A stretch of 64,000 nucleotides of DNA from Escherichia coli (GCF_044647545.1 NZ_CP172818.1); one strand, 5' to 3'. Shown: positions 8,659-50,231, counted from the first letter of the stretch. Notes: generated by a model from the sequence alone, not told the origin. Numbers and translations are program-made.

Positions 8659-10004
8659 AATTTACCCAACGTCTTAGTCTGCGAGTCAGGCTGACGCTAA
8701 TCTTTTTAATTCTGGCCTCGGTGACCTGGCTGTTTTCCAGCTTTGTCGCCTGGAAACAAACAACGGATAACGTCGATGAGTTGTTCGACACCCAACTGAT
8801 GCTGTTTGCCAAACGGTTAAGTACGCTCGATCTCAACGAAATCAACGCGGCGGATCGCATGGCACAGACGCCAAATAAATTAAAACACGGTCATGTTGAT
8901 GACGATGCGCTGACCTTTGCCATCTTTACCCACGACGGCAGAATGGTCCTTAACGATGGCGATAACGGAGAAGATATTCCTTATAGCTATCAGCGGGAAG
9001 GTTTTGCTGACGGGCAACTGGTCGGTGAAGACGATCCCTGGCGTTTTGTCTGGATGACCTCACCTGATGGCAAATATCGCATCGTTGTTGGTCAGGAATG
9101 GGAATACCGTGAAGACATGGCGCTGGCGATTGTTGCCGGACAATTGATCCCGTGGCTGGTCGCACTGCCGATTATGTTAATCATCATGATGGTACTACTG
9201 GGTCGTGAACTCGCGCCGCTGAACAAACTGGCGCTGGCACTACGTATGCGTGACCCAGACTCGGAAAAACCACTAAACGCGACGGGCGTACCCAGCGAAG
9301 TGCGTCCACTGGTTGAGTCGTTGAATCAACTGTTCGCCCGCACACATGCGATGATGGTTCGTGAACGACGCTTTACCTCCGACGCAGCTCACGAACTTCG
9401 TAGCCCGTTAACGGCGCTGAAAGTGCAAACCGAAGTTGCTCAGCTCTCTGACGATGATCCGCAGGCGCGGAAAAAAGCGCTGCTCCAATTACATTCCGGG
9501 ATCGATCGTGCTACTCGTCTGGTTGATCAACTGCTCACGCTATCGCGGCTGGACTCACTGGATAACCTTCAGGACGTCGCGGAGATCCCGCTTGAAGATC
9601 TCCTGCAATCGTCGGTGATGGATATTTACCACACGGCGCAGCAGGCGAAAATTGACGTGCGACTGACACTCAATGCCCACGGCATCAAACGCACCGGACA
9701 ACCGCTGTTGCTAAGTTTGTTGGTACGAAACCTTCTGGATAACGCCGTGCGCTACAGTCCACAGGGCTGCGTGGTGGACGTCACGCTGAATGCCGATAAT
9801 TTCATCGTGAAGGATAACGGCCCCGGTGTGACACCAGAGGCACTGGCGAGAATTGGCGAACGCTTCTATCGCCCACCCGGACAAACCGCTACCGGCAGTG
9901 GACTTGGGCTATCGATTGTCCAGCGAATCGCCAAATTGCATGGCATGAATGTTGAGTTTGGGAATGCGGAACAAGGTGGATTTGAGGCGAAGGTAAGCTG
10001 GTAA
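8655..10004 (+). CDS. qseC: Sensor histidine kinase QseC
   Basis: 449 aa; two TM segments, H-box AAHELRSPL, HATPase domain; translationally coupled to qseB. Confidence 0.93.
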
Positions 10005-46903: not shown

Positions 46904-46940
46904 CAAAGGCTGACGAGAAATCGTCAGCCTTTTTCTTTTT
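46904..46940 (+). terminator. Intrinsic terminator downstream of ileX
   Basis: Hairpin ggctgacga gaaa tcgtcagcc followed by tttttcttttt. Confidence 0.75.
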
Positions 46941-46949
46941 ATATATCAG

Positions 46950-47714
46950 TTACTTTGCGTGCCAGTAAGCCGCTGCACGTACCCGCTGTGGGTCATACTG
47001 TTCCGCTTCAAAGCGGCGGCTTAAATTCTTAACGACTTTGCCTTCGCCGGTTATCCAGATGAAGTAATCATCGGCAGGGATTTGCATCTGCGCCAGACGC
47101 GCATCTACCGCCTGCTCATCATGCGCCAGCCATTCGATATTAAAACCATCAAGGTGCGCGAGATAATCCTGGCAGGCGTGATCCCGCACGCTAACCAGTG
47201 CGCTAACTTGCGGTTTAACAGCAAGTTTGCTCAACGTTTCCAGGCGGCGGCGCAGTGCGGGCATTCCGGATTCATCGCAGACATACAGCTGATACGCGTA
47301 ATCCTCTGGCACCACCAGCGAACCGCGCGGACCTGCCACCGTGAGTTTATCGCCCGGTTGCGCCTGCATTGCCCAGCTGCTGGCGACGCCACCGTCGTGA
47401 ATAAAGAAATCAATCGCCAGTTCATGGCGTAGTTCGTCATACAGCGGCGTATAGTCACGCGACGGTGGGCGTGGTCCTTCCGGCCAGACGATGCCCTCTT
47501 CCGTTACCGTTGGCGGCACAAAGTGAGCATCAGATTGAGGAAAGAAGAGTTTGCTGTGATCGTCAAAGCCGCGCGATGTAAAACCGTCCAGCGCCTCGCC
47601 GCCAAGGACAATGCGCTGAAAACCGGCGCTAATACGCTCAGCGCGTAGCACAGTCAATTCACGGAAGCGCAGATCATTGCGAACGCGCTGCGGGTAGCGG
47701 GGGGAGTTATTCAT
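46950..47714 (-). CDS. yqjH: NADPH-dependent ferric-chelate (siderophore) reductase
   Basis: 254-aa ORF, FAD-binding siderophore-interacting family. Confidence 0.9.
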   Translation of the reverse strand: MNNSPRYPQRVRNDLRFRELTVLRAERISAGFQRIVLGGEALDGFTSRGFDDHSKLFFPQSDAHFVPPTVTEEGIVWPEGPRPPSRDYTPLYDELRHELAIDFFIHDGGVASSWAMQAQPGDKLTVAGPRGSLVVPEDYAYQLYVCDESGMPALRRRLETLSKLAVKPQVSALVSVRDHACQDYLAHLDGFNIEWLAHDEQAVDARLAQMQIPADDYFIWITGEGKVVKNLSRRFEAEQYDPQRVRAAAYWHAK

Positions 47715-47764
47715 TGTTATCGCCTTCGTGATAGTAATCAGATATATCTAAATAAATTTCGCAA

Positions 47765-47790
47765 ATGATAATGATTGTTAATCATGATAA
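47765..47790. promoter_or_regulatory. Fur box in the yqjH-yqjI divergent promoter region
   Basis: tgataatgattgttaatcatgataa closely matches the Fur consensus gataatgataatcattatc. Confidence 0.7.
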
Positions 47791-47854
47791 ATGCAAGCGA
47801 TTTGTAGAACTGATATATCTGAAGTATGAGAAGACATTCAGCGTCGTAGCAAGG

Positions 47855-47890
47855 CTGCCGGATGCGGCGTGAACGAATTATCCGGCCTGG
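47855..47890. repeat. REP-like palindromic element
   Basis: gctgccggatgcggcgtgaacgaattatccggcctgg resembles enterobacterial REP sequences. Confidence 0.45.
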
Positions 47891-47990
47891 ATGTGAGGTG
47901 TATTCACGTTTAAAAATCATTTTTATACTTGCAAAAGCGCTCATATCAGATATAAATTAGATATATCTAATTAAGCAAAAGGAGGCTGAT

Positions 47991-48614
47991 ATGAGCCATC
48001 ATCACGAAGGGTGTTGTAAACATGAAGGCCAGCCACGCCATGAAGGCTGCTGCAAAGGTGAGAAGTCAGAACATGAGCACTGCGGACACGGTCACCAGCA
48101 TGAACACGGTCAATGCTGCGGTGGTCGCCACGGTCGCGGCGGCGGTCGTCGGCAGCGTTTCTTTGGTCACGGTGAATTGCGTCTGGTGATTCTGGATATT
48201 CTCTCGCGCGATGACAGCCACGGTTACGAATTGATTAAAGCGATTGAGAATCTAACCCAGGGGAATTACACCCCAAGCCCGGGCGTCATCTACCCAACGC
48301 TGGATTTTCTGCAGGAGCAGTCGCTGATTACCATCCGCGAAGAGGAAGGTGGTAAGAAGCAGATTGCACTGACCGAACAGGGCGCGCAGTGGCTGGAAGA
48401 AAACCGCGAACAGGTGGAGATGATCGAAGAACGCATCAAAGCGCGTTGCGTTGGTGCTGCACTCCGCCAGAACCCGCAAATGAAGCGGGCGCTGGATAAT
48501 TTTAAAGCGGTGCTGGATTTACGCGTCAACCAGAGCGATATCACTGATGCACAAATAAAAAAGATCATTGCGGTGATCGACCGCGCCGCTTTTGATATTA
48601 CCCAACTGGATTAA
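47991..48614 (+). CDS. yqjI: PadR-family metal-responsive transcriptional repressor YqjI
   Basis: 207 aa; His/Cys/Gly-rich N-terminus (MSHHHEGCCKHEG...HEHCGHGHQHEHGQCCGG), PadR winged-helix. Confidence 0.9.
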   Translation: MSHHHEGCCKHEGQPRHEGCCKGEKSEHEHCGHGHQHEHGQCCGGRHGRGGGRRQRFFGHGELRLVILDILSRDDSHGYELIKAIENLTQGNYTPSPGVIYPTLDFLQEQSLITIREEEGGKKQIALTEQGAQWLEENREQVEMIEERIKARCVGAALRQNPQMKRALDNFKAVLDLRVNQSDITDAQIKKIIAVIDRAAFDITQLD

Positions 48615-48700
48615 CGGATGCGGCGTACCCCTACCCCCCCCGTAGGCCTGATAAGATGCGCCAGCATCGCATCAGGCATTGTGCTCCAACCGCCGGATCC
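48615..48700. repeat. REP element(s) between convergent yqjI and aer
   Basis: cggatgcggcgta... and gtaggcctgataagatgcgccagcatcgcatcaggc palindromes typical of REP/BIME. Confidence 0.7.
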
Positions 48701-48710
48701 GGCATACCGA

Positions 48711-50231
48711 TTAATGCAGCACCGTCACCGCGTCTTCCAGTCGGCTGGCGCGGTGTTTCACCATCGCCGACACCTGCGCACTCTCTTCCACTAACTCGGC
48801 GTTTTTCTGGGTGATCAGGTTAAGCTCATCCACTGCACGGGTCAGGCTGGAAAGCCCATCGGCCTGTTCCAGCGTTGAATGGCTAATCTGAGCTATCAAC
48901 TGGGTGACGTTTTTTACCTGTGCCACAATATCTTCCATCGTCCGTCCGGCGGCGTGTACCTGCTGCGAACCGGATTGCACCTTATCAGCACTGGCATCAA
49001 TCAGCTTGCGAATATCGTTGGCAGCATTGGCGCTGCGGCTGGCTAAATGACGCACTTCCCCCGCCACCACTGCAAAACCTTTGCCCTGTTCGCCGGCACG
49101 CGCCGCTTCCACCGCCGCATTCAGGGCCAGAATATTGGTCTGAAACGCAATATCGTTAATCAGCGAAGTAATGGTGCCAATGCGCTGGGTACTGTCGGCA
49201 ATATCGTCCATTGTCTTGATCACCGTAGTCATCGCCTCTCCGCCCTGCACTGCCGCATTACTGGCAGTGATAGAAAGTTTATCGGCAGCCGACGCCGTGG
49301 CAGAGTTCTGTTTCACCGACGCCGCCATTTGGTTCATGGTCGCCACCGTTTGCTGAACGTTATCAACTGTCTGCTGGGTATGTTCGTTCAGTTCATCGGT
49401 GCCTTTCGCCAGCGTCTCACTGCCATTTCTGACACTGGACACCTGGCTTGAGACATCGTTAATTAGCCAACGGCACATCAGACCAAGCTGCCCTACCGCG
49501 CGTAATGTCAGCCCCAGCTCATCGCTGCGATTCAGATGCTCAACACTATTACGCTCTCCGGTCGCCACCTTCAGCGCCTGACGGGCGACATTTTCTATCG
49601 GGCGCACAATCTGCCATTCAAAACAAGCGCTTGCCAACAATACCACTAACGCACAGAGGATATACGTCACCACCGGGGCAGCAACAAACCAAAGCATGGC
49701 CGCCAGCAAGATAAACATCAGGGTCATCACGCCACGCGCCCGCCAGCGAAGCGGTAATGAAGGCAGTTTTCCCAACCAACCTTTACGCACCACCAGGCCT
49801 TTATGAATACGCTTACTGGTCCGTCCGGCGTTCAACGCTTTGTACAGCGGCTCCACCGCCGCGATCTCTTCATCCGTCGCCCGGGTACGAATCGACATAT
49901 AGCCACTGATTTTTCCCTCGCGCACCATCGGTACCGCATTGGCCCGCACCCAATAATGGTCGCCATTTTTGCGGCGATTTTTCACGATGCCGCTCCAGGG
50001 CTCCCCTTTTTTCAGGGTGAACCACATATCCGCAAACGCCGCTTTTGGCATATCCGGGTGACGCACCATGTTGTGCGGTTGCCCCTGTAACTCCTGCAAG
50101 GTATAGCCGCTCACCTGCACAAAAGTGTCATTAGCATGAGTGATATAGCTTTGCAGATCGGTAGTGGACATCAGAGTGGTGTCGTCCGCCAGCGGGGTAT
50201 TTTGCTGGGTGACATACGGATGAGAAGACAT
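48711..50231 (-). CDS. aer: Aerotaxis receptor Aer (PAS-FAD / HAMP / MCP signalling domain)
   Basis: 506 aa; N-terminal PAS, central TM hairpin, methyl-accepting signalling domain. Confidence 0.93.

Follow-up and report, generated by a model that had tools for sequence, protein, structure and literature searches.

A stretch of 64,000 nucleotides from Escherichia coli (GCF_044647545.1, NZ_CP172818.1; here called the window, with positions counted from its first letter) contains the divergent gene pair nfeF (yqjH) and nfeR (yqjI), and the region very probably constitutes a two-input metal switch on which both Fur and NfeR act. The nfeF-nfeR region seen here is the very one that has been characterised in E. 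coli and no mere relative, and the system is already known. Its layout appears to be that of a promoter doubly repressed by Fur and NfeR which faces the promoter of an autorepressed regulator, with promoter hexamers, transcription starts and NfeR-contacted bases that we infer. Sequence anatomy, statistical excess, conservation and protein domains were observed here; repression by Fur and NfeR, and its relief by nickel, are taken from the literature. The initial annotation of the window had expected an architecture for iron/nickel-responsive control of yqjH, and the identity of the locus, the literature on Fur and NfeR and the conserved elements all support this. For a genome scan the region can serve as a positive control, being a published control region that was recognised from sequence alone. 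What may go beyond the literature is a polymorphic third repeat that is degenerate in K-12, and a hypervariable NfeR tail that is combined with invariant operators.

A 601-base query spanning the region has matches in 5,423 of 5,426 complete E. coli genomes, the underlying features being annotated nfeF and nfeR, and its identity to strain 7/2 is 100%. RefSeq gives the pair these names in 5,421 E. coli genomes. The genes run in the order rpoD, mug, tRNA-Ile, nfeF (minus strand), nfeR (plus strand) and aer, and the flanking tRNA ileX, mug and aer are the same as in K-12. Identity to the K-12 proteins is 98% for NfeF and 99.5% for NfeR, and at the level of sequence the divergent pair can be taken as the orthologues of YqjH and YqjI. 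NfeF has the FAD_binding_9 and SIP domains of siderophore-interacting reductases (Pfam). The solved structures nearest to NfeR are PadR-family regulators, e.g. 9qbc (E = 6e-9), and a search of NCBIfam with NfeR gave no equivalog model above its cut-off. The spacer between the two genes (47715-47990, 35.5% G+C) is 276 bp, the length first given for it.

NfeR represses nfeF and excess nickel relieves this repression (PMC7981267, citing Wang 2011 and 2014). In Klebsiella, deletion of nfeR increases nfeF expression 85-fold, and nfeR affects virulence in an insect model (PMC7981267). Under nickel stress nfeR is induced, and nfeF is counted among the genes that Fur regulates (PMC9508795); it is also included in the Fur-2 iModulon (PMC10164565). 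YqjH serves in iron reduction after hydrolysis of ferric enterobactin by Fes (PMC6460284).

Three sites in the spacer, called A, B and C in their order from nfeF to nfeR, carry the 8-bp core GATATATC (Table 1). The window has four copies of this core as against 0.52 expected, and three of the four are within the spacer. When the spacer was simulated 20,000 times with a composition-matched first-order Markov model, no run gave three copies. Three copies of a palindrome had been reported in the initial annotation, and all three do share the core; however, the middle copy, site B, has only the core and shows 4 mismatches to the 14-bp palindrome TTAGATATATCTAA, while site A shows 1 and C2, the palindrome within site C, shows none. 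Sites A and C2 are the only matches to TTAGATATATCTAA with one mismatch or less in the 64 kb. Sites A and C are presumed to be NfeR operators, one region for each promoter. The core of site A is ~25 nt from the nfeF start codon and at ~+13 to +22 from the putative nfeF transcription start. C2 is embedded in an 18-bp perfect palindrome (47955-47972) and overlaps the predicted start point of nfeR, and C1, the half-site that accompanies it, overlaps the predicted nfeR -10. (An 11-nt perfect inverted repeat, GCTCATATCAG / CTGATATGAGC at 47939-47949 and 47986-47996, brackets site C, the ribosome binding site and the nfeR start codon; its substitutions in E. albertii are not compensatory, which makes a structural role doubtful.)

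It is scarcely credible that the palindromes are not protein operators and arose by chance in A/T-rich promoter DNA, or reflect structure in a leader RNA: the spacer is indeed poor in G+C and C1 coincides with a -10 hexamer, but the simulations never reached three copies, the six genera share the cores of A and C2 without exception while the DNA on either side has diverged, a palindrome of 10 nt leaves no room for a loop and so could not fold into a stable RNA hairpin, and Rfam gave only tRNA and weak matches related to the repetitive extragenic palindromic (REP) element and naRNA4 (the REP-related match being the only family in the spacer), with a REP hairpin like that of shuffled sequence.

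Supportive evidence for sites A and C comes from comparison of orthologous spacers. A scan of species-representative genomes yielded 32 loci from Escherichia, Citrobacter, Enterobacter, Lelliottia, Superficieibacter and Raoultella, with a divergent nfeF at every locus that extends far enough; 33 spacers, of 145 to 287 bp, were extracted and aligned at their two ends. The core of site A, the Fur-box core AATGATAATGATT (47764-47776) and the C2 block TTAGATATATC are invariant in all 33. The GATATA of C1 is nearly so (TAGATATA in most spacers, single substitutions in three sequences), and the tandem of site C is conserved as (A)GATATA-N4-AGATATATC over the nfeR promoter. The DNA between the ends is unalignable across genera, and the spacers of Enterobacter and Lelliottia, at 145-147 bp, are without the central region. 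Among nine Escherichia sequences the 35-bp block of the Fur box and -35, site A and site C are invariant except for one T-to-A in the C1-C2 linker of one strain, while the spacer centre is ~80-90% identical, with many substitutions and an 11-bp insertion/deletion (indel). Of the three palindrome positions for which conservation in orthologous spacers had been set as a check, A and C pass and the middle one, B, is not conserved. Helical phasing of A and C2 as a conserved rule finds no support: their distances of 219 and 230 bp in E. coli are about one turn apart, yet those of other genera (96-97, 166, 172-175 and 183-185 bp) have no common phase.

The relationship to K-12 is close. yqjH-yqjI of K-12 has the same genes, order and divergent layout, and site A, the Fur-box block, the nfeR promoter, site C and the NfeR tail are identical to those of the window, base for base or residue for residue. 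Nearly all differences fall within the central ~110 bp, from site B to the REP flank, and mean column identity over the aligned region is 93%. The K-12 spacer is 287 bp because of the 11-bp indel beside the REP element, the inner stem of that element has GCC where the window has GAA, and the middle repeat is GATATGTC in contrast to the perfect GATATATC of the window. The K-12 system was described in J Bacteriol by Wang, Wu & Outten (2011) and by Wang et al. (2014). The abstract of the latter reportedly gives one YqjI-protected site per promoter, the two being nearly 200 bp apart and in communication with each other, with a footprint that is extended on the yqjI side. Site A on the one hand and the tandem of C1 and C2 on the other would agree with this.

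The Fur box was located with the 19-bp consensus GATAATGATAATCATTATC, and is supported as a moderate match that would cover the spacer and -10 of the putative nfeF promoter. A Fur-like stretch between yqjH and yqjI, as initially annotated, does exist, and its position and conservation support it. The putative nfeF promoter was read by eye on the minus strand as TTGCAT (47796-47791), 17 nt and CATTAT (47773-47768), with a start at ~47761. GCAAG on the plus strand, the complement of its -35 TTGCA(T/A), is conserved in nearly all 33 spacers, and the TTGC of the nfeR -35 and a TATA(A/G)N hexamer have fixed spacing in all of them. The block containing the nfeF ribosome binding site, CGCCTTCGTG, is largely conserved across genera. 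As at classical Fur-repressed promoters, where a 19-bp box lies over the -10 and -35, a GATAAT-like hexamer array overlaps the promoter core; unlike them, the best 19-mer here matches at only 14 of 19 positions and a second repressor, NfeR, would act on the same promoter.

NfeR has a tail rich in His, Cys, Gly and Glu before its RRQRFFGHG motif. The 53 residues of the tail include 12 His, 7 Cys, 13 Gly and 7 Glu, with HEGCCK present twice, in agreement with the His/Cys/Gly-rich N-terminus first noted for YqjI; the rest of the protein, 148 residues from position 60, has 2 His and 1 Cys. HypB, UreE and SlyD are nickel-handling proteins with His/Cys-rich tails. The NfeR tail resembles theirs in being a low-complexity His/Cys/Gly/Glu segment on a folded domain that varies widely in length between species, but it is on a DNA-binding regulator, and the likeness is compositional only, with no homology claimed. 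While the operators are invariant, the tail is hypervariable among orthologues (8 to 81 residues, 0 to 10 Cys). It has 52-53 residues with 7 Cys in Escherichia, 30-81 residues with 3-10 Cys in Citrobacter (81 residues and 10 Cys in Citrobacter sedlakii), and no Cys in Raoultella and Enterobacter sp. kpr-6 (27-44 residues, His-rich), Superficieibacter (19 residues) or Enterobacter and Lelliottia (8-10 residues). Among the orthologues compared, only those of Escherichia and Citrobacter have a Cys-rich tail. Where the tail is short, the spacer is short too (145-147 bp).

The winged-helix PadR domain of NfeR is common to the PadR-family repressors (Bacillus subtilis PadR, LmrR; structures 9qbc, 3l9f, 4esb). 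As with these, nfeR adjoins a divergent target, and autoregulation via a palindrome over its own promoter is proposed. The effector is a metal ion, presumably sensed through the N-terminal tail, and not a phenolic compound or drug. The operator box of PadR and LmrR is ATGT-N8-ACAT, and the presumed NfeR operator, TTAGATATATCTAA, is of different sequence. One site in the spacer (47822-47837, beside site B) matches the canonical box with at most one mismatch. This candidate was rejected as an NfeR operator: there are 12 such matches in the window, below the chance expectation of 23, and the one in the spacer is not conserved in K-12.

The following mechanism can be proposed. When iron is sufficient, Fe(II)-Fur would occupy the Fur box over the spacer and -10 of the nfeF promoter and switch nfeF off. 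NfeR, as a PadR-type winged-helix dimer, would bind palindromes of the TTAGATATATCTAA type at A, just downstream of the nfeF start, and at C1 and C2, in tandem over the nfeR -10 and +1. From these positions it would repress both nfeF and itself. Binding of nickel to the His/Cys-rich N-terminal tail would lower the affinity for DNA and derepress both genes, and the siderophore-iron reductase would in this way be induced when nickel disturbs the iron supply. What separates the two operators, the REP element and the A/T-rich centre, would be filler particular to the lineage or DNA with an architectural role.

Several points weigh against this mechanism. The Fur box matches at no more than 14/19, a level that five further 19-mers of the window attain or exceed, some of them inside coding genes. 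(In all, six 19-mers have five or fewer mismatches to the consensus as against 0.97 expected; those elsewhere, at 9170, 20818 and other positions, are inside cpdA and a fimbrial usher gene and were treated as chance.) The description of the box as near-consensus was too strong, and its match count by itself would not single the site out. A sigma-70 consensus scan of the spacer called neither the nfeF nor the nfeR promoter. Part of the conservation of C1 and of the Fur core could reflect promoter function and not repressor contacts, because C1 overlaps the nfeR -10 and the Fur core the nfeF -10. The orthologues of Enterobacter, Lelliottia, Raoultella and Superficieibacter keep the operators and are without any Cys in the tail, so the nickel-sensing step may not be universal. 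Lastly, the correspondence of the published YqjI sites I and II to sites A and C is our inference.

Table 1. Features of the nfeF-nfeR region in window coordinates (promoter elements and operators are predicted)
Feature	Position	Strand	Basis or remark
nfeF/yqjH coding sequence, NADPH-dependent ferric-chelate/siderophore reductase	46950..47714	-	open reading frame (ORF) of 254 aa; Pfam FAD_binding_9 + SIP; RefSeq nfeF
Putative nfeF ribosome binding site, GAAGG, 8 nt before ATG	47723..47727	-	read from sequence
Site A, TCAGATATATCTAA, with 10-bp palindrome AGATATATCT at 47740-47749; presumed NfeR operator at nfeF promoter	47738..47751		core GATATATC invariant; K-12-identical
Fur box, overlapping 19-mers 47761-47779 (14/19) and 47767-47785 (13/19)	47761..47790		consensus scan; core AATGATAATGATT invariant; nfeF Fur-regulated per literature
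Putative nfeF -10, CATTAT, inside Fur box	47768..47773	-	read by eye, conserved across genera
Putative nfeF -35, TTGCAT	47791..47796	-	plus-strand GCAAG conserved
Site B, TGATATATCT, core at 47812-47819; strain-variable third copy	47811..47820		~55 bp upstream of putative nfeF start, centred near -55
REP-like element, degenerate, inner stem CC to AA	47857..47890		aligns to K-12 REP GCCGGATGCGGCGTGAACGCCTTATCCGGCCTAC
A/T-rich block TTAAAAATCATTTTTATAC, directly upstream of nfeR -35	47910..47928	+	nearly invariant in Escherichia
Putative nfeR promoter, TTGCAA 47929-47934, 16 nt, TATAAA 47951-47956	47929..47956	+	read by eye, conserved spacing; start ~47963
Site C, C1 half-site AGATATAAAT 47948-47957 and C2 palindrome AGATATATCT 47959-47968, 11 bp apart; presumed NfeR autoregulatory operator	47948..47968		
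nfeR ribosome binding site, AGGAGG, 5 nt before ATG	47980..47985	+	read from sequence
nfeR/yqjI coding sequence	47991..48614	+	ORF; RefSeq annotation
NfeR codons 1-53, His/Cys/Gly/Glu-rich tail	47991..48149	+	identical to K-12 tail
PadR winged-helix DNA-binding domain of NfeR, residues 67-136	48189..48398	+	Pfam PF03551, 56.6 bits, cut-off 27, E = 2.5e-15

Site B differs between strains. Its core is perfect in the window strain, in sequence type 131 (ST131), in two other strains, in E. albertii and in Escherichia sp. E1V33; it reads GATATGTC in K-12 and O157:H7 and GAAACATC in strain SCPM-O-B-8794. Its presence in perfect form in E. albertii and Escherichia sp. E1V33 means that the K-12 form is probably derived. 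The alleles were counted with 40-mer queries in which no seed can avoid the core, a design valid only for site B (megablast counts of the A and C alleles with 40-mers are not interpretable since single nucleotide polymorphisms in the flanks break the 28-base seed). At least 1,629 of 5,426 E. coli genomes (about 30%) have the perfect core and at least 2,467 the K-12 type.

Could all three palindromes be working NfeR operators? Site B would then be an ancestral third operator that cooperates by looping with A (71 bp away) or with C (148 bp away), and its loss in strains of the K-12 type would change the tightness of nfeF repression. This is possible but doubtful. The persistence of the perfect core in so many genomes and beyond E. 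coli is in its favour, as is the failure of three copies to arise in simulations. A GATATAG half-site is kept at a similar place in Citrobacter, Raoultella and others, and AATATATC occurs between the promoters in Enterobacter. But B has the four mismatches to the 14-bp palindrome common to A and C2, is mutated in the K-12-type genomes and in SCPM-O-B-8794, and has surroundings as variable as the unconstrained centre. Furthermore, spacers of other genera, when read for it, have only the half-site TTTTGATATAG, ~5 nt nearer the -35, with a 5-column alignment gap there. The favoured mechanism, with A and C as the NfeR operators, leaves site B at most an accessory role that could be dispensed with.

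The spacer centre has a REP-like element, as the initial annotation held. It matches the REP at the orthologous place in K-12 at 29 of 34 positions and conforms to the REP definition, being an intergenic imperfect palindrome GCCGGATG...ATCCGGC. The alignment to the canonical K-12 element sustains the assignment, though naRNA4, an Rfam family derived from REP, gives only a weak match (47830-47887, 25 bits, E = 0.08) and the hairpin is unremarkable. Its stability is no better than that of shuffled sequence (z = -0.24), which is consistent with a decaying copy. Among the 33 spacers of six genera, only those of Escherichia contain the REP. The 11-bp indel beside it (CATCATTACTC in K-12; ~47854, between 47853 and 47857) gives rise to the 276-bp and 287-bp forms of the spacer, and is unlinked to the site B allele because ST131 has the insertion together with a perfect site B. 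A 68-aa ORF on the minus strand (47738-47944) was rejected as a gene; its frame passes across the REP and is disrupted in K-12 by the indel. (A stronger REP-type match, to naRNA4 with 46.7 bits at 48645-48704, is present between nfeR and aer, 48617-48710. This stretch is ~10 bp shorter in the window than in strain 7/2, aer ending at 48711 as against 48721 in 7/2 coordinates.)

The centre would be more than filler if other DNA-binding proteins, PepA, IHF or nucleoid proteins on the REP and A/T-rich blocks, were major organisers of the spacer. We consider this unlikely. Genomic SELEX (systematic evolution of ligands by exponential enrichment) with PepA (aminopeptidase A) in E. coli K-12 returned the nfeF/nfeR spacer as the single binding target (PMC8249747); that result is in vitro only, and the position within the spacer is unspecified. 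The block TTTAAAAATCATTTTT is nearly invariant in Escherichia, and the A/T-rich block upstream of the nfeR -35 is possibly, though speculatively, an UP element or a site for an architectural protein. Yet the centre defies alignment between genera, and the Enterobacter spacers, of 147 bp, do without it. Perfect IHF-consensus sequences (e.g. AATCAATTAATTA) were seen, by reading the printed spacers, in the A/T-rich centres of Citrobacter and Raoultella, but the window's spacer has no IHF consensus at one mismatch or less. Action of PepA or IHF would add to the model of Fur and NfeR rather than replace it.

At one end of the locus, a strong terminator-like hairpin of 12 pairs followed by a T-run (46905-46932) is located between tRNA-Ile and the 3′ end of nfeF. 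It is likely the terminator of the tRNA transcript, and possibly, via its A-tract, also serves nfeF. One E. coli strain, UTME-3, has a truncated site-specific integrase and an IS3 transposase in place of nfeF, the whole spacer and the 5′ end of nfeR. The replaced region adjoins tRNA ileX, which suggests an island insertion or deletion there.

Natural variation might retune the switch, though this is a tentative proposal with rather little probability. It has two parts: three NfeR sites would be ancestral, with the middle one lost by an A-to-G change in the K-12 and O157 lineages, and variation of the tail would alter the effector metal or the sensitivity of NfeR between genera. If true, repression or looping of the nfeF promoter in ~30% of E. 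coli genomes, among them the window strain and the examined ST131 strain, would not be as in the laboratory strain that was the subject of all published footprints. The variable repeat and the variable tail would be of interest to specialists in metalloregulation, and leave the known model unchanged. The region links iron acquisition, through siderophore iron release by NfeF, to nickel stress.

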